Source of the DNA: Candidatus Iainarchaeum sp.
Lineage (GTDB): Archaea > Iainarchaeota > Iainarchaeia > Iainarchaeales > Iainarchaeaceae
NCBI GenBank assembly: GCA_043812975.1
Contig: JBDRLP010000006.1
Coordinates: 1 to 10,893 of the forward strand
Direction: 5' to 3'
Length of the DNA: 10,893 nucleotides
In this document: positions 2,055-9,048 of the stretch, one piece after another
How positions within the stretch are numbered: position 1 is the first letter of the stretch
Layout: every line of letters begins with the position of its first letter
Notes under the pieces: model-generated
Told to the model about the DNA's origin: nothing
The model's input: the letters and a program-made list of their open reading frames with translations, nothing else
The model's database searches: none
Program-made: the position numbers and the translations under genes

Positions 2055-3131
2055 TTAAAGCGACCATTTTGTCGAGGTACAGCCTTTCCCTTGCCCTGCT
2101 AAAAGTGAATCCATAAATGCCTTTTGTTCTTTTTTGTCTCTGATTTCTCCAACAATAACCCGGTCAGGCCTCATCCTTAAAGTATTTGTAATTAATTCCT
2201 GCATTCCAAGGTCAATTGAATCTGCATTGGCAAGTTTCACAAAATGTTTGTGAGGTACATTAATTTCCGGTGTTTCTTCAACAAGAATAATTCTTTCATT
2301 TGCAGGAACAAAATTTAAGAGACTATTGAGAAGAGTTGTTTTTCCTGATCCTGTGTTTCCGCAGACTAACAATGAACAATCAGCCTGAATTGCCATCCAT
2401 AAAAAGGCAAGTTGGTCAATAGAAACAGAACCAATATCAGCTAAATCTGTTGGAGTGAATGGTTGTTCGCGAAACTTTCTGATTGTTAATGAAGGTCCGG
2501 AAACTGAAGCAGGTTCAATACAAGCATTAAGTCTTGAGCCATCACTTAGAACAGCATTAAGCCTTGGATTTTGTAAAGTCAGTCTTCTTCCTATTGTGCC
2601 GGCCATTGCATTTACAATAGTTTTGATTTCAGAATTATCTGAAAAGTATAAGTTGGTCGGAAGCCATCCAAAGATAGAATCGAAAACATAAACAGGCTTT
2701 GATTTCCCCAAACCAATAACTGCAATTTCCTCAAGTTCCTTGTCCTCAAGAAGGTTTGTCAGGATTCCGGCAGGAGTTGTAATATTTTCGATTAATTTTT
2801 TTAAGTACTTTTTTTGATCTCTGTCCAGGGTTATATGGTTTTTTTCACAATAGATTTCCAGTGCCTGATTCGGCTGATTTTCTTTAGTGTTTGTACTGCT
2901 ATTTCTGTAATGTTCAAGCGTATTTCTGAGTAGTTTTGCTTCATCTATGCTTAATTCAGGGGTGTTTTTGAGCAAATAAACTAGTTTTCCGCTTTTTTCC
3001 TGTATAATCTCCCTTGAATCCCCAGCCGCGGAAACAACCTTGGCTCTGTCCTTTTCTTTTAACCCAAAAACCCTCCAGCCAAGAGCCTCTTCTACCTTCA
3101 AACATTCAAATACTTGCTTCGAAACCCCCAT
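2055..3131 (-). pseudogene. CpaF/VirB11/KlbA-family pilus secretion ATPase, C-terminally truncated
   Basis: Contains 'LSDGSRLNA', 'TIRKF', Walker A GNTGSGKTT, Asp box 'VEETPEI' and Walker B 'LRMRPDRVIVGEIR'. It ends at 'AGQGKGCTSTKWSL*', lacking the T-x-H-A His box and everything downstream. I found no continuation in the other frames. Confidence 0.75.
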
Positions 3132-3210: not shown

Positions 3211-3546
3211 ATGCGGATTCGTGGAGGAAGAATTGTAGATTTCTGGAAAAATATTCAGAATTCTGTGAGAAAATCAAGGTTTAATCGATTAATGAATTGG
3301 TCAATATTAAATGATAGAAAGGGTGAAAGAAGAAAAAAGCGAATTAATAGCAAAACAGGAGCCACTTTTTTTATGAATCCTGCAGAAGCAGTCGGAATGA
3401 AAAAACCAAAACCAGAAGTAGTAAGTTCTATTGGAGCTGTAGATTATCCTCGTGGTCCTGCTATTGATTTGAAGGAAGGAGTAGTTGGTTTGAAAAATAG
3501 GCGTGTTCCTGGTTCAGACAGGAGAAAAAAATCAAAGAAAAAATAA
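3211..3546 (+). CDS. Hypothetical highly basic protein (111 aa)
   Basis: ATG-started ORF filling the intergenic gap. It is R/K-rich with no recognisable motif. Confidence 0.55.
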   Translation: MRIRGGRIVDFWKNIQNSVRKSRFNRLMNWSILNDRKGERRKKRINSKTGATFFMNPAEAVGMKKPKPEVVSSIGAVDYPRGPAIDLKEGVVGLKNRRVPGSDRRKKSKKK

Positions 3547-3605
3547 TTATGTAGAACTTATTCTTGTGATTAAGTTTAAATTCTGTTTTATGAGAAAACT
3601 ATATT

Positions 3606-3809
3606 ATGGATTTAGATGAAATTGGTGATATTGCAGATCGTCCTGACATACCCATAAGGAAATTTGCACCTAAATCTAAACAACCTGAAAAAAAATGTCA
3701 GGTTTGCAGGAAAGGGATAACCAAAGAGAACACTCCGTCTATTTTATATTATTCAAAATTCTGTTCCAATCAGTGTAAGGAACGTTATATGTATTCAACA
3801 GATATTTAA
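3606..3809 (+). CDS. Small zinc-finger protein (TRASH/treble-clef-like)
   Basis: Cysteine pattern CQVC-x-FCSNQC. TTTAAA at about 3575-3580 is roughly 26-31 nt upstream of the ATG. Confidence 0.65.
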   Translation: MDLDEIGDIADRPDIPIRKFAPKSKQPEKKCQVCRKGITKENTPSILYYSKFCSNQCKERYMYSTDI

Positions 3810-4156
3810 TTCCACTTCAACTTTTCTCCTAATTTTATTTTGCTTGCAGTTTCTTTTGGAAGTTCCACAAAATACTTTGCTGATTTTTTTGGAGTGTAAT
3901 TCAATATCCACGGATTTAATGTTGTTTTATCAACAACTATTTTTTCGGAATTAAGGTAAACAATATCTATAGGAAAAAACACGAACAGCATGTGGACACT
4001 TGAATTTATTCTTCCTTCTTTATCTAGTTCAAAAACTAATCCGTAATCAAAGTTTTCTTTTTTTTCAAACATCAAACCCTTAAACCTTGAAAACGAAGTA
4101 TTGGCTGTTTTGGTTTTTTCAATTATTTTTTTTCCAGAAGTAGAATTAATTAACAT
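3806..4156 (-). CDS. DUF192 (UPF0127) family protein
   Basis: Motifs 'ANTSFSRFKGLMF', 'VHMLFVFFPIDIVYLN' and 'AKYFVELP...IKLGEKL'. The start is the ATG at 4156 or the TTG at 4162. Confidence 0.9.
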   Translation of the reverse strand: MLINSTSGKKIIEKTKTANTSFSRFKGLMFEKKENFDYGLVFELDKEGRINSSVHMLFVFFPIDIVYLNSEKIVVDKTTLNPWILNYTPKKSAKYFVELPKETASKIKLGEKLKWN

Positions 4157-4162
4157 TAACAA

Positions 4163-4402
4163 TCAGTGCTTTTTCTTTTCTTCTCTTATCATTTCAATAC
4201 TCGGCACCTTTATTTCCTCGAGCATTGTCTTTGACTCTTTTGGAGTTATAGAATTGAATTGTTCTCTAGCAAGTTCTTTTCTAAGGGAATCGATTTCGCT
4301 CAGTTTAACCTGCATTTCCTCAAGGATATTCTCAACTCTTTCTTTTTTGCTGTTGGAAGCTTTTTTTTTCATACTCTCAATTTTCCCGTTCTTTTTAACC
4401 AT
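4163..4402 (-). CDS. Small charged coiled-coil hypothetical protein
   Basis: K/E-rich ORF directly abutting the DUF192 gene. The start is the ATG at 4402 or the GTG at 4411. Confidence 0.6.
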   Translation of the reverse strand: MVKKNGKIESMKKKASNSKKERVENILEEMQVKLSEIDSLRKELAREQFNSITPKESKTMLEEIKVPSIEMIREEKKKH

Positions 4403-4475
4403 TAAAACCACATTATTTGAGGTCTTTCACATATTAATAGTTTGTTGTTGCACCGGCAACCACGTCTAAAAACCA

Positions 4476-4481
4476 TTTAAA
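4476..4481 (+). promoter_or_regulatory. TATA box for the LAGLIDADG gene (probably leaderless; may read through into the tRNA)
   Basis: TTTAAA preceded by an A-rich BRE-like stretch, 23-28 nt upstream of ATG 4504. There is no RBS before the ATG. Confidence 0.55.
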
Positions 4482-4503
4482 GCCTCAAAAATCAAATTCT
4501 TTA

Positions 4504-5463
4504 ATGCAGGAAAAATTATCGATTTTTGATGTTAAATCAGATTGGTTGAAAGATCAAGTTTATGTTCATGGTTTGAGGGAAGAAATAAGGGAAATCCTTG
4601 TCCATTTAGGCGGTCCATCAAAGGCATGTCATTTGCTTGGAGTTTCTTATGTTGCTTTGAAAGAGTGGCCGCATGGAAGAAAACCAATCTCGCTTGAGAA
4701 ACTCAATACACTGATTGGTTTTTGTGATGCTCCGTTTCAAAAAGAAATTAAATCAAAGATTGATTCAAAAGAAATTTTATTGAGTTGCAGGTACTCTCCT
4801 CACAAAATAAAATTTCCCAAAATTATTACTCCAGATTTAGCTTATCTTCTTGGTATATGTCTTGGAGATGGAACCTTTGCAGGAGATTCTTCCAATGGAA
4901 AAGGGAATTGGATAATCGGTGCTTTCTTTGACAACCGAGAACATCAAGCGTTGTGTGATTTAATTATCTTGAAAATTTTTGGTATTAAGGCAAAACAATA
5001 CGATTCTAAGGAAAATTGTTTTGAGTCATATTTTGGCTCAAAAGTGTTGCACTGGTTTTTCAGAAGCTACTTTGGAGTTTGCAATGGGTATAAATGTAAT
5101 AGAATATTCGGTCCTGATTTAATTTTAAAATCAGATAAAAAGATTGTTTCTTCGTTTTTGCAGGGTTTGTTCGATTCTGATGGAACAATAAATAACAGAA
5201 ATGTTGTGAAGTATGCGAGCACCAGCAAGGTCATGGTTGAGCAAGTAAGGGCTGTGCTCACAGGGTTTGGCATTGACTCAGGATTTTCTAAATGGCTTAA
5301 GGCTGAGAAGTATTTGCCCCTTTATACAGCCGAAGTGAGGTCTAAGAATAACGTTTTAAAGTTTGCCGAACGCATTAATTTTAGACATCCAGGTAAACAT
5401 GCTAGATTGCTTGGTGTTGAAATAAAATCAAATAAAATCGCTATTAATAGCCCCGTCGTCTAG
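4504..5463 (+). CDS. Free-standing two-motif LAGLIDADG homing endonuclease with an N-terminal HTH
   Basis: Motif 1 'LAYLLGICLGDG' and motif 2 'FLQGLFDSDG', both with the acidic catalytic residue. The HTH-like segment is 'GPSKACHLLGVSYVALKEWPHGRKPISL'. There are no intein splicing motifs. The last codons S-P-V-V-stop are tRNA nucleotides 1-15. Confidence 0.9.
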   Translation: MQEKLSIFDVKSDWLKDQVYVHGLREEIREILVHLGGPSKACHLLGVSYVALKEWPHGRKPISLEKLNTLIGFCDAPFQKEIKSKIDSKEILLSCRYSPHKIKFPKIITPDLAYLLGICLGDGTFAGDSSNGKGNWIIGAFFDNREHQALCDLIILKIFGIKAKQYDSKENCFESYFGSKVLHWFFRSYFGVCNGYKCNRIFGPDLILKSDKKIVSSFLQGLFDSDGTINNRNVVKYASTSKVMVEQVRAVLTGFGIDSGFSKWLKAEKYLPLYTAEVRSKNNVLKFAERINFRHPGKHARLLGVEIKSNKIAINSPVV

Positions 5464-5565
5464 CGGCCAAGGGGACTCAGTCCATTGATTAATGATTGCT
5501 GGTTCCCGTCGAAAGGATATTGGATTCTGGATCCAATGACCAGAGTTCGAATCTCTGCGGGGCTA
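5449..5565 (+). tRNA. tRNA-Gln(CTG) with a D-loop intron
   Basis: Acceptor stem AGCCCCG 5449-55 / CGGGGCT 5558-64. D-stem GTCT/GGAT. Anticodon arm TTGGA-TT-CTG-GA-TCCAA, with the anticodon at 5527-5529. T-arm CAGAG-TTCGAAT-CTCTG. Discriminator A5565, no encoded CCA. The A1-U72 pair is typical of archaeal tRNA-Gln. The spliced length is 73 nt. Confidence 0.95.
5470..5513 (+). other. 44-nt non-canonical tRNA intron in the D-loop (just before position 21) with a relaxed bulge-helix-bulge motif
   Basis: The central 4-bp helix is CGGC 5464-67 / GTCG 5508-11, with 3-nt bulges CAA 5468-70 and AAA 5512-14 and an inner helix GGGGAC/GTTCCC. Cutting after the second nucleotide of each bulge restores ...GCGGCCA|AGGAT.... 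Confidence 0.88.
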
Positions 5566-6294: not shown

Positions 6295-9048
6295 TCACGT
6301 TCGCATGAATTTTAATGCTTCCGGGAATAAACGCCACATGTTTGGTTTTGTAAGTATTTTTCCTACAAAGCGTGAGGGCCTGTCCATGTCTCCGTGTTCA
6401 CTTAAAAATTCCCCGATTTTTGCCTTTTCCATTCTCTGAAACAGCCTGTCAAGCTGTTCCTCGTTTTTGCTATTCAGAAACTGCCTTATTTTCCAGTGTA
6501 ACCTTAGTTCTTTATTAAGTTCAGAACAGTTCTTTTCATAATTTTTTAATGGCTTGTTGTCTTTGAAATAAGCATTTATAGAATCAGCAGCTATTTTTCC
6601 TGCTTCAGCACCAAGGATTATTCCTCCGCCTGTGTTATGCAAGAGGATAGGCCCTATTCCCCCTGTAAACATTTGCGTTTCCGGGATTTCAACATCAAAA
6701 ACATTTGAATCGGTTGTTTTTACTTTTCTTATTTCTTTCACTTTCAGAAGTATAATTTTTTGTGTTAAAATATTTTTAATAAATTCGTTATCATTATTTT
6801 TTGTTTTGCTGAAAACCTGCACCAATCTTTGTGAACCAAGATTTTTGTATGATTCATAAGAGTTTCCGAATTCTTTAAGGAGCTCCTGTTTAATATTTTT
6901 TGTTTCAAGTAATTCTTTCGGAATTTTTTGGGTTTCTCTTCCTGACATTTTTTGAATAAATTTTTCTATTTTTTTTTCTTTTTCCGGAAAAATGTTTTTC
7001 AGTTCATGCATGTCTTTTTTGCGTGAAAAAGTTATCCGATATGATTCTAAACAGCCAAACTCTTTTCCAAAAATACGCCTGTTTTTTGGTTTCTCGGATT
7101 CTATTGACGGGAACAAGCCAAGTTGAAATGACAGCAAAACAAGGTCGCTTGCCATTTTTCTGCTAACTGTTTTTGCGCTGAGTTCAATTGAACGATGCCT
7201 CCTGTTTTTGTTTTCTCTTATCCTTATTGTTCCGTCTCCTCTTAAATATCCTTTCAAAAATTCTTTTTTCAGTTCTTCTTCAATATTAAAAATAATCCAC
7301 GGTATTTGTTTGCCTTTCGCTTTTATTCCGCATTCAAAAACATTTTGAAAAAGATTTTTTGCAATTTCCCCCCCGAAAGTTAATGAGTATGCTGTTTCTT
7401 TGCTGTTTTCCGGGTTTTTTTTGCCAGTAATTTTTTCAGGTCGTACTCCTAATCCTTTTTGTATGCATTTCACCGCGTCTTCGAGATAGCCTTTTTTCTT
7501 GTCTTCTATTCCCATTGTAATCGTAAGATTGTTTTCTTTGTAAGAGCCCTCGGCTGCAAAATAACCCAGAAGTCTGCATAGTTCTTTTGTAATTGGGAGT
7601 TTGTCCTCATAAAACAGTGATCCTTTGTAAAGGCTGATTTTCGTGTTTTGTGGCCTTATACCTTTTTCCAAAAATTTTGTCAGGGGTATGATGTTTTTAT
7701 AGTAGTATTGGCTCGCTTTTCCTTTTTCAACTTCTTTATAATTTTGGTAAATCTTCTCCTTTAAACCATGCACCATAATTTTTTTTGCTGTTTCTGGACA
7801 TTTTTCCATGAGTTCCTTTATAATATTAATTTCCTTGATTATTCTTCCCTTTGGAATGTTGGTGTTAAGAGCCATTATATCTTTTCCTTGTTGTAGTTTA
7901 TCTGTGTATTTTGCAGAAAAACTATTTTTTGTTGCAACCATCACGCTGTGGCTTGCAGTTGCTTTAACTCTATACCCTTTTTCCAGAATTATTTCATAAA
8001 GATCTTCCTCAATTTTGTGTCTTAGAATATTTTTTATTTCTCTAAAGCCATTTTTTTTCGCTTTTTCATCCGGGGAAAAAGCGCGTATTTCTTTTTTTGG
8101 AACAGCTATCTCATAGTTTTCTGAGGAAATTATTTCGTTTTTTGGATTGGTGAATTCTTTATCTGCAAGTTTACCTATTTTCTCATTTCTTATAAAACCT
8201 TTTTCATCAAGCAAAACAATCGGCTCTTCATAATCAATGCTTGTTGCTTTTGTCTGGAAAGCAGAATCTCCAACCAAAAGCATGTTGTCATGGACAATAT
8301 TTTTCAAGGGTTCCCCAACAGGAATTAAAGAACTGCACCTGTCACAAAATTCTCCTGAAATATTTTTTTCATTTACAAACATTTCGAAATCTTTTCTAAT
8401 GTTTTTTGACGTGCTTGCCAAACCAATTCTGGCTTGTTCTTCATTTTCAGGAACTATCCACGCAAAAAATCCTTTTGAATAATCGCCCATGTAAATCTGA
8501 ACACACTTTGGGTCAAAGTTTCCTTTTGCAATAACCTGATAACCATGAACATAATTTTTAATATTTGTTTGAAAACCCATTAAGCTTCGTGTTTTAGAAT
8601 TAACTCCGTCAGCTCCCACGATTAGTTTTGATTTTTGCAAACCTCCTCTTCCTTTATACTCAGTAAAAATTGTTTCATTTCTAATATCAATCATTTTTGT
8701 ATTAAGATTTATTTCAACTCCTGCTTCTGTTGCTTCTCTTGCAAGAACCCTGTCAAATTCTTTTCTGTCAATAACATAAGCTACAGTTGAACTTTTTTTT
8801 ACTTCTATCATCTCATGATTTGGTGAATAAATTTGAGCCCCTTTAATTTTGTTCACCAAAGTTTCTTCAACTTCTTTTCGTATGCCGACATCCTCGACTC
8901 CGGTAGCACTAATAATTCCTGTGCAGTTAACTGGGTTGCCAATAACATTGTGTTCTTCAAGTACTGAGGTTTTCCACCCCATTTCCTGACATTTTCTGGC
9001 AGTGATCAACCCAGCAGGACCTCCTCCGATAACAGTAACCATGTTCAT
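6295..9048 (-). CDS. Geranylgeranyl reductase family FAD oxidoreductase (DGGGPL reductase-like) containing an intein
   Basis: FAD motif 'VIGGGPAG', plus 'CTGIIS', 'IDRKEFDRVLA', 'IVGADGVNS', 'FFAWIVP' and 'LVGDSAFQTKAT|TGGGI'. The spliced product would be 269+112 = 381 aa, a normal GGR length. Confidence 0.9.
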   Translation of the reverse strand: MNMVTVIGGGPAGLITARKCQEMGWKTSVLEEHNVIGNPVNCTGIISATGVEDVGIRKEVEETLVNKIKGAQIYSPNHEMIEVKKSSTVAYVIDRKEFDRVLAREATEAGVEINLNTKMIDIRNETIFTEYKGRGGLQKSKLIVGADGVNSKTRSLMGFQTNIKNYVHGYQVIAKGNFDPKCVQIYMGDYSKGFFAWIVPENEEQARIGLASTSKNIRKDFEMFVNEKNISGEFCDRCSSLIPVGEPLKNIVHDNMLLVGDSAFQTKATSIDYEEPIVLLDEKGFIRNEKIGKLADKEFTNPKNEIISSENYEIAVPKKEIRAFSPDEKAKKNGFREIKNILRHKIEEDLYEIILEKGYRVKATASHSVMVATKNSFSAKYTDKLQQGKDIMALNTNIPKGRIIKEINIIKELMEKCPETAKKIMVHGLKEKIYQNYKEVEKGKASQYYYKNIIPLTKFLEKGIRPQNTKISLYKGSLFYEDKLPITKELCRLLGYFAAEGSYKENNLTITMGIEDKKKGYLEDAVKCIQKGLGVRPEKITGKKNPENSKETAYSLTFGGEIAKNLFQNVFECGIKAKGKQIPWIIFNIEEELKKEFLKGYLRGDGTIRIRENKNRRHRSIELSAKTVSRKMASDLVLLSFQLGLFPSIESEKPKNRRIFGKEFGCLESYRITFSRKKDMHELKNIFPEKEKKIEKFIQKMSGRETQKIPKELLETKNIKQELLKEFGNSYESYKNLGSQRLVQVFSKTKNNDNEFIKNILTQKIILLKVKEIRKVKTTDSNVFDVEIPETQMFTGGIGPILLHNTGGGIILGAEAGKIAADSINAYFKDNKPLKNYEKNCSELNKELRLHWKIRQFLNSKNEEQLDRLFQRMEKAKIGEFLSEHGDMDRPSRFVGKILTKPNMWRLFPEALKFMRT
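6634..8241 (-). mobile_element. Intein (536 aa) with a LAGLIDADG homing endonuclease
   Basis: Block A 'SIDYEEPIVL' (Ser1), block B 'VKATASHSV', LAGLIDADG motifs 'LLGYFAAEG' and 'FLKGYLRGDG', block F 'VFDVEIP' and block G 'ILLHN', followed by Thr+1. Confidence 0.93.

Follow-up and report, generated by a model that had tools for sequence, protein, structure and literature searches.

We analysed a stretch of DNA from Candidatus Iainarchaeum sp. (JBDRLP010000006.1, here called the window) that is the entire contig C6, 10,893 bases long, of a 1.24 Mb genome with 35% G+C and 94% completeness. On its forward strand lies an open reading frame (ORF) for a free-standing LAGLIDADG protein, P0001, whose 3' end runs into a transfer RNA gene, tRNA-Gln(CUG), and this tRNA gene is in turn interrupted by a short intron in its D loop (Table 1). 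Throughout, G000 denotes the window's genome and other G numbers the genomes of relatives, L numbers denote loci, and C numbers denote contigs of G000. An earlier note, made from the letters of this stretch, had described an intact two-motif LAGLIDADG ORF with no intein or intron around it, fused to the tRNA and followed 7 nucleotides (nt) after its stop codon by a 44-nt D-loop intron, and had proposed that gene and intron spread together.

Table 1. Features of the endonuclease-tRNA locus in the window.
Feature	Coordinates	Strand	Basis or remark
TTTAAA box, candidate archaeal promoter of the endonuclease gene	4476-4481	+	judged from sequence; 22 nt 5' of the ATG
Segment absent from the syntenic locus of G003 (endonuclease cassette)	4451-5448	+	left flank 3539-4450 79.5% identical; similarity ends at 4450
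P0001, free-standing single-chain LAGLIDADG homing endonuclease gene, 319 amino acids	4504-5463	+	Pfam, predicted structure
N-terminal helical domain, helix-turn-helix-like, residues 1-105	4504-4818	+	conserved alignment columns (18 orthologues); model helices 25-88
LAGLIDADG motif 1, LAYLLGICLGDGTF, residues 112-125	4837-4878	+	catalytic Asp122 at 4867-4869
LAGLIDADG motif 2, VSSFLQGLFDSDGTI, residues 215-229	5146-5190	+	catalytic Asp226 at 5179-5181
tRNA-Gln(CUG) gene including intron	5449-5565	+	anticodon CTG at 5527-5529
Overlap of ORF 3' end with tRNA 5' end, 15 nt	5449-5463	+	stop TAG (5461-5463) is tRNA nt 13-15
tRNA exon 1 (nt 1-21)	5449-5469	+	
D-loop intron, 44 nt, relaxed bulge-helix-bulge type, no ORF	5470-5513	+	
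tRNA exon 2	5514-5565	+	

P0001 matches the Pfam family LAGLIDADG_3 (PF14528) at residues 215-292, scoring 68.9 bits against a cut-off of 22.5. Residues G121, D122 and G123 of the first motif and D224, D226 and G227 of the second are invariant in 18/18 aligned orthologues. An AlphaFold model of the protein (predicted local distance difference test, pLDDT, 89.9; predicted template-modelling score, pTM, 0.88) has the pseudo-dimeric alpha-beta-beta-alpha-beta-beta-alpha fold of LAGLIDADG enzymes. Searching with this model in Foldseek, we found the endonuclease domains of the TliVMA and PI-PfuI inteins (7qsu, E-value 1.3e-12, and 1dq3) and I-DmoI (2vs7_A, TM-score 0.76, normalised to the length of I-DmoI), with WhiA chains lower among the matches (8dy9_I, E-value 1.3e-8). 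The N-terminal domain shows a weak Pfam match to P22_Cro at residues 30-55 (E-value 0.009), below the cut-off. No extein and no intron surrounds the ORF, and because the gene lies inside no larger frame it is free-standing; with its Pfam match and both catalytic aspartates in place, this part of the earlier description is borne out. The conserved catalytic residues favour an active nuclease over a WhiA-like regulator, and the ORF is an intact, selfish LAGLIDADG homing endonuclease gene whose product is probably active.

The intron had been placed correctly to the base: it begins 7 nt after the stop codon (6 nt separate it from the end of the ORF), and excising it yields a complete cloverleaf with 4/4 D-stem pairs and the same D arm as in intron-less relatives. 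The T arm and acceptor of this tRNA are identical to those of the tRNA-Gln(UUG) on C65 of G000. Because AAGG is repeated at both junctions, the splice borders can slide by up to 2-3 nt. The Rfam tRNA model scores 31.2 bits at 5502-5565 and uses a false 5' end inside the intron; we rejected 5502 as the start, since the real acceptor strand is 5449-5455. ARAGORN reports no tRNA in the window, a miss that we discounted as evidence against the gene because the program handles only introns in the anticodon loop. A 7-mer, CCCGTCG, is repeated in exon 1 and the intron, which is within chance for about 100 nt.

Canonical archaeal introns of the bulge-helix-bulge (BHB) type have a 4-base-pair central helix between two 3-nt bulges that hold the splice sites. 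The 117-nt precursor (fold z-score -3.74) is predicted to pair exon nucleotides C16-C19 with intron nucleotides G60-G63 as a 4-base-pair central helix. A 3-nt bulge, CAA, holds the 5' splice site and is followed by a 6-base-pair intron helix; the 3' splice site falls in AAA facing two unpaired nucleotides beside the D stem, a 2x3 internal loop that represents a relaxed form. An alignment of the 14 homologous intron-bearing tRNA-Gln(CUG) genes shows 97.2% pairing in the intron helices and compensatory changes on both sides at 7 pairs; 0/500 shuffles reached the observed level, and slid controls were 32-57% paired. The tRNA-Gln D-loop introns are 34-55 nt long, occupy a single position, occur in CUG genes only, and in all 14 cases can be aligned and share sequence. 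G000 has one match to the splicing-endonuclease family PF01974 (87.6 bits), in an ORF of 169 amino acids on C42. No RNA run is listed among the public sequencing runs, and the best DNA runs contained at most 0.13 of the sampled words; contigs derived from them were short pieces or the tRNA-Gln of other organisms, and none spans the endonuclease gene or the intron.

We surveyed 60 related genomes for orthologues of P0001 and added a scan with one genome per species. Orthologues were present in 9/60 relatives at 37-80% identity, and in each of the 8 loci that could be read tRNA-Gln(CUG) follows at once on the same strand. The species scan gave 21 loci, of which contig coordinates showed 7 to be records already covered by the survey, leaving 14 new ones; tRNA-Gln is immediately 3' in all of the new loci, and in one of them the contig ends 15 nt into the tRNA. 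Combining these 14 with 9 from the survey (the window included), 23/23 readable orthologue loci lie directly 5' of tRNA-Gln, as the earlier note had led us to look for, and the anticodon is CUG in 22/22 where it can be read. The P0001 lineage is thus confined to one address, directly 5' of tRNA-Gln(CUG), in the Iainarchaeota/Diapherotrites (DPANN).

The description of the ORF as fused to the tRNA fared less well. The window has its 15-nt overlap, and in 16/18 database orthologues the C-terminal tail (…NSPVV, …APSSSGQG and others) is the tRNA-Gln 5' end translated, in various frames. The stop codon falls in the D arm in G000, G010 and G047, in the D-loop intron in G017, in an anticodon-loop intron in G011, at tRNA nt 24-26 in G051, and 1-34 nt before the tRNA in G002, G054, L183, L189 and L190. 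Since position and frame of the stop differ between genomes, the overlap of ORF and tRNA is incidental, a by-product of how tightly the two are packed.

To relate the endonuclease to the intron we drew on a census of 108 tRNA-Gln 5' ends from 58/61 genomes, of which 98 could be parsed, 9 could not, and 1 was a duplicated fragment. Among 14 CUG loci with a D-loop intron, 5 have an intact or broken endonuclease gene upstream, 7 a C-terminal stump, and 2 no trace, with no flank too short to judge. The 37 CUG loci lacking the intron divide into 4 with an intact or broken gene, 1 with a stump, 30 with no trace and 2 whose flank is too short; the 47 UUG loci, none with a D-loop intron, have neither gene nor stump (46 no trace, 1 flank too short). 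A gene or stump thus accompanies 12/14 intron-bearing CUG genes versus 5/35 intron-less ones with adequate flank, bearing out the expected co-occurrence, although these genomes, like those behind all our gene and intron counts, are kin, which overstates their independence. Intron together with gene or stump is found in four taxonomic families (f1, f2, f14 and f26). On the endonuclease tree, the intron is present in 8/10 of one clade and 1/9 of the other; its state takes a minimum of 4 changes, and only 19-24 of 500 shuffles came out that low. The link concerns the D-loop introns, the closest to the gene; those of the anticodon loop are found both where the gene is present and where it is absent.

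The same arrangement recurs independently at a second tRNA. G000 has another free-standing LAGLIDADG gene (C27:27433-28341, 302 amino acids) that is about 30% identical to P0001, and its stop codon TAG is nt 8-10 of tRNA-Phe(GAA), a gene with a 39-nt D-loop intron after …AGCCUG. Orthologues of this gene in G021 (with one TGA), G030, G059 and G003 (a fragment) all precede tRNA-Phe. We compared 29 parsed tRNA-Phe genes plus that of G003, which is cut at the contig end. The D-loop intron is present in 5/29 parsed genes and in G003, and all six (6/6) have the gene or its C-terminal stump upstream, the stumps being those of G011 (49 amino acids, 59% identity) and G002 (57 amino acids, E-value 0.001, a weak match). 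Among intron-less tRNA-Phe genes, 0/21 have a gene or stump, two of them with short flanks. In G059 the gene stands before a tRNA-Phe with an anticodon-loop intron and an unusual D arm. Within G000, among the tRNA genes that can be delimited, there are only two D-loop introns, and they are in the only two tRNAs with an overlapping endonuclease gene upstream; all other tRNA introns of this genome lie in or at the anticodon loop. Separately, L152 (G016) and L150 (G053) have tRNA-Phe introns after nt 9, with several introns in G053 and no endonuclease trace upstream.

The P0001 lineage behaves as a selfish mobile element, being patchy in its presence, discordant in its tree, and accompanied by broken copies and stumps. 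At the syntenic locus within the genus we found three states: gene and intron together in G000 and G002, a 3' stump of about 100 nt with the intron in G004, and neither in G003. The G003 locus is the empty allele that the earlier note had suggested seeking, and there 140 unrelated nt precede tRNA-Gln(CUG) in place of the cassette. The protein tree pairs G000 with G010, from a different genus, as sisters (support 99/94) and leaves the same-genus G002 outside (99/98), and between G000 and G010 the gene is 80.8% identical in DNA and the upstream flank 73.3%. Broken copies are present in G030, L191 and L194. At eight tRNA-Gln(CUG) loci all that is left of the gene is a C-terminal stump of 33-74 codons immediately 5' of the tRNA, and searches with full-length queries over 1.3-1.4 kilobases upstream found no N-terminal stumps. 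The two stumps at tRNA-Phe are likewise C-terminal. Because only 3' stumps survive, the last 100-200 nt of the gene may have come to serve expression of the tRNA, and their retention suggests that in decayed copies this stretch is now necessary for it. As a tRNA promoter in the 3' end of the ORF we considered a TATA-like box, AAATAAAA, at -29 to -22 and set it aside, its position not being kept in G010 or G004; it is one possible reason for the retained stumps.

P0001 belongs to one of many paralogous lineages in the order, in each of which the 3' end of the gene abuts an end of a particular tRNA gene. We surveyed 11 loci of relatives with open frames of 267-441 amino acids, the size of free-standing enzymes. 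At 10/11, the distance between the ORF stop and a tRNA end is -88 to +4 nt; six of these are on the same strand, with the 3' end of the ORF on the tRNA 5' end, and four are convergent, with the 3' end of the ORF on the tRNA 3' end. The eleventh, L029, has no tRNA at an E-value of 0.1 or better. In G000 itself, 4/4 complete free-standing LAGLIDADG copies adjoin tRNAs (Gln, Phe, Ala and Asp), and the remaining LAGLIDADG matches are long, intein-sized frames or lie beside a 16S ribosomal RNA (rRNA) match. One of the partial frames, at a contig end (L008, C53:7036-7485), starts where an archaeal small-subunit rRNA match ends and is probably an rRNA-intron endonuclease. Free-standing LAGLIDADG genes that use tRNA gene borders as their address thus form a large class in DPANN archaea, a pattern that genome annotation misses: ARAGORN does not see the tRNA, and the proteins are labelled hypothetical.

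We favour, with moderate confidence, an account in which P0001 is a selfish endonuclease at the border of tRNA-Gln(CUG) and the D-loop intron is co-converted with its gene as a linked passenger. The enzyme would cut the tRNA gene of naive genomes, and repair would copy the endonuclease gene in from the carrier genome. Exon 1 and the intron lie 0-65 nt from the end of the gene, and our proposal is that they would therefore be co-converted with it, the intron spreading as a linked passenger. Movement of gene and intron together by co-conversion is the most likely interpretation of their linkage. The cut is likely to fall in the D-arm part of the tRNA gene, and carrier alleles would be protected by the intron or by D-loop variants.

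A number of observations weigh against this account. Of the 22 orthologue loci that could be read, 12 lack the D-loop intron and 10 carry it, with one subclade nearly free of it (8/9 without) and G051 lacking any intron. The nearest relative of the P0001 gene, that of G010 (80% identity), sits on an allele lacking the D-loop intron. The intron is therefore not essential for carriage, and the first 21 nt of the tRNA are room enough for gene and intron to become separated. Conversely, the intron-bearing tRNA-Gln(CUG) genes of G008 and G009 show no endonuclease trace. No footprint marks the cut site: we considered a fossil half-tRNA upstream as such a mark and rejected it, a significant copy of the tRNA 5' end being present in just 1/19 orthologue loci (L182). 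Splicing is assumed; a single splicing-endonuclease homologue of 169 amino acids was found, and a 2x3 internal loop holds the 3' splice site. The kinship of the genomes counts here as well. Nor does the D-loop sequence help much. Intron-less tRNA-Gln(CUG) genes read AGCGGCCAA in, for example, G013 and G018, and AGTGGCCAA in, for example, G003 and G010; AGCGGCCAA is found in 0/10 intron-less alleles with an intact gene versus 7/30 alleles with neither gene nor intron, a contrast of P ~0.07 before kinship is considered. This is a weak hint of a D-arm target, and too weak to claim the C16/T16 variants of the D loop as immunity.

Several of these points would be expected if the enzyme recognised the junction between the spacer and the tRNA 5' end, with its own insertion destroying the site, and if the D-loop intron were older, linked by descent and without a protective role. 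The intron-less carrier loci and the two intron-bearing genes lacking an endonuclease trace would fit, and so would the paralogues, whose ORF ends always touch a tRNA end, on either strand. Counting against our account as well, 6/10 of the tRNAs they flank are of intron-free length (72-84 nt), and the two longer ones that could be parsed, L035 and L020, have anticodon-loop introns and no D-loop intron (L030 and L036 are unparsed). The intron state also tracks the clades of the endonuclease tree, the pattern to be expected from shared descent. Set against this are the recurrence of the same link at two tRNAs with two endonuclease lineages only about 30% identical, the restriction of the link to D-loop introns, which lie nearest the gene, as opposed to anticodon-loop introns, and the presence of intron with gene or stump in four families. 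We consider a target at the border unlikely, though it is an alternative to be taken seriously.

An intron born from the attack itself would leave some of the same signs. Repeated cutting of the D arm would select spliceable insertions as resistance scars, which would mark exposure to the enzyme and would not have been carried in with it; D-loop introns at tRNAs with a present or past upstream gene (12/14 and 6/6), and introns that outlast the decay of the gene to a stump, agree with this. All 14 tRNA-Gln D-loop introns, however, are at one position and can be aligned through shared sequence, which points to one origin followed by inheritance or transfer and not to repeated births, and the intron state clusters on the endonuclease tree; independent scars are hence improbable. 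Still less credible, to the point of being very improbable, is a domesticated DNA-binding protein, a WhiA-like LAGLIDADG and helix-turn-helix regulator of the neighbouring tRNA that is no longer a nuclease. The WhiA chains among the structural matches, the additional helix-turn-helix-like domain and the fixed position beside a tRNA would suit such a protein, but both catalytic aspartates are invariant in all orthologues aligned, the gene is present in a minority of relatives, broken copies and stumps are common, and the tree disagrees with taxonomy.

A bolder form of the co-conversion account is tentative, and we think it possible but doubtful. D-loop BHB introns would be the immunity partners of tRNA-targeting free-standing LAGLIDADG endonucleases: intron-less D-arm DNA would be cut, the intron-bearing allele would be uncuttable, and the pair would be copied together into naive genomes. 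If true, phage collaborative homing would have a counterpart in archaea that works with protein-spliced introns, and non-canonical tRNA introns would have a means of spreading.

Two phage cases offer a comparison: F-CphI is reportedly encoded beside the psbA group I intron of cyanophage S-PM2, and T4 MobE is said to go with the td/I-TevIII intron. In such phage systems a free-standing endonuclease spreads with a neighbouring ORF-less intron, which is termed collaborative homing (PMC2790892, PMC6083498). The locus studied here is alike in that the endonuclease gene lies outside the ORF-less intron of a neighbouring gene, gene and intron co-occur, and joint spread by double-strand-break repair is proposed, with the intron interrupting the target. 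It differs in its host, an archaeal chromosome; in its enzyme, LAGLIDADG as opposed to the HNH or Endo VII enzymes of phages; and in its intron, a protein-spliced BHB tRNA intron as opposed to a self-splicing group I intron, which about half of the carriers lack. Collaborative homing in phages involves cleavage at the intron insertion site; at the locus studied here such cleavage would be a prediction. Phage T4 also has SegB, a free-standing GIY-YIG homing endonuclease in a tRNA gene cluster (PMC2330249). SegB shares with P0001 a free-standing gene among tRNA genes and drives preferential inheritance of the adjoining tRNA region; it is of another enzyme family and host and comes with no intron, whereas the archaeal genes sit at the fixed border of one tRNA and overlap it.

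LAGLIDADG genes inside BHB introns of archaeal rRNA, such as those of I-DmoI and I-Tsp061I, are the classical arrangement. P0001 shares their fold, domain of life and, in its neighbourhood, intron class, but its ORF lies outside the intron, upstream of nt 1 of the tRNA, it has an extra N-terminal domain of about 105 residues, and the intron is just 44 nt long.

For the spread of short ORF-less archaeal tRNA introns to new genes and genomes, published models invoke integrases or intron transposition. Intron transposition is a model of tRNA intron gain in the Thermoproteales. The model for tRNA-Thr of Caldiarchaeum invokes integrating elements, with integrases and att sites (PMC3293823). In that paper the question is the same as ours, the gain of a tRNA intron at an odd position, and the idea of an intron protecting the target gene of an element is shared; the model as given there is without a homing endonuclease, and the word 'homing' occurs 0 times. 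Our full-text literature search, with subscription journals and bioRxiv supplements outside its reach, found no account of LAGLIDADG genes with a fixed place beside archaeal tRNA genes or an association with BHB tRNA introns. Here two endonuclease lineages, each at the 5' end of one tRNA and each linked to a D-loop intron, form decay series from intact gene to stump to nothing, and the system lets one ask whether homing endonucleases drive, or select for, introns at odd positions.

Several smaller features of the tRNA genes were also seen. The G003 'empty' site contains a 21-nt relic of the tRNA 5' end (L096, 1205-1232), which we considered as an endonuclease footprint and dropped, since similar copies are present at at least 9 tRNA-Gln genes. 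These copies, 13-21 nt from the 5' ends of CUG and UUG genes, sit 60-150 nt upstream and are followed by a CCTTTT...AAAAGG-type hairpin, often with TTGCGA/TTCGCG. Besides G003, they are found at about position 11698 of C65, 144 nt before tRNA-Gln(UUG), and in L053, L070, L083, L084, L089, L094, L101 and L103. Copies and hairpin together fit a separate small insertion element that duplicates its target. In L115 (G036), about 40 nt of upstream sequence and the first 25 nt of tRNA-Gln(CUG) are tandemly duplicated, 147 nt before the complete gene.

Other tRNA genes are incomplete or unusual. At L055 (G013), L081 (G018) and L044 (G043), a tRNA-Gln 5' half extends to the anticodon loop, and no 3' half is within reach in the more than 100 nt beyond it; in G043 direct repeats of about 35 nt come after it. 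Giant introns, split genes or repeat arrays may account for these loci. In G000, orphan tRNA 3' halves (T arm and acceptor strand) lie at C58:9339-9389, C23:18063-18087, about 28490-28518 of C27, and C46:1857-1881, directly after complete tRNA genes or an endonuclease gene. Two have a T arm identical or nearly identical to that of the neighbour and a different acceptor, and the halves may be parts of split tRNAs or scars of duplication. The anticodon-loop introns of tRNA-Ala(CGC) and tRNA-Asp(GTC) (C46:669-775 and C36:18850-18965) share a motif, AAAAAAGGTTTGCGAAAAT, of which the intron of a third tRNA, probably Arg (C12:14988-15147), has a looser variant, AAAGGTTAGCGAAAAG, suggesting a related family of introns or insertions.

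Elsewhere in the window, on the minus strand, we found a TrbC/VirB2-type pilin homologue (115-483), a secretion ATPase of the T2SSE family (2055-3131), and a geranylgeranyl-reductase-like gene (6295-9048; FAD_binding_3 and GGR_cat domains) that is split by an intein with its own LAGLIDADG_3 domain. The Intein_splicing match covers residues 306-805, and this intein, 830 nt away from the P0001 gene, adds a second homing element that is unrelated to it.

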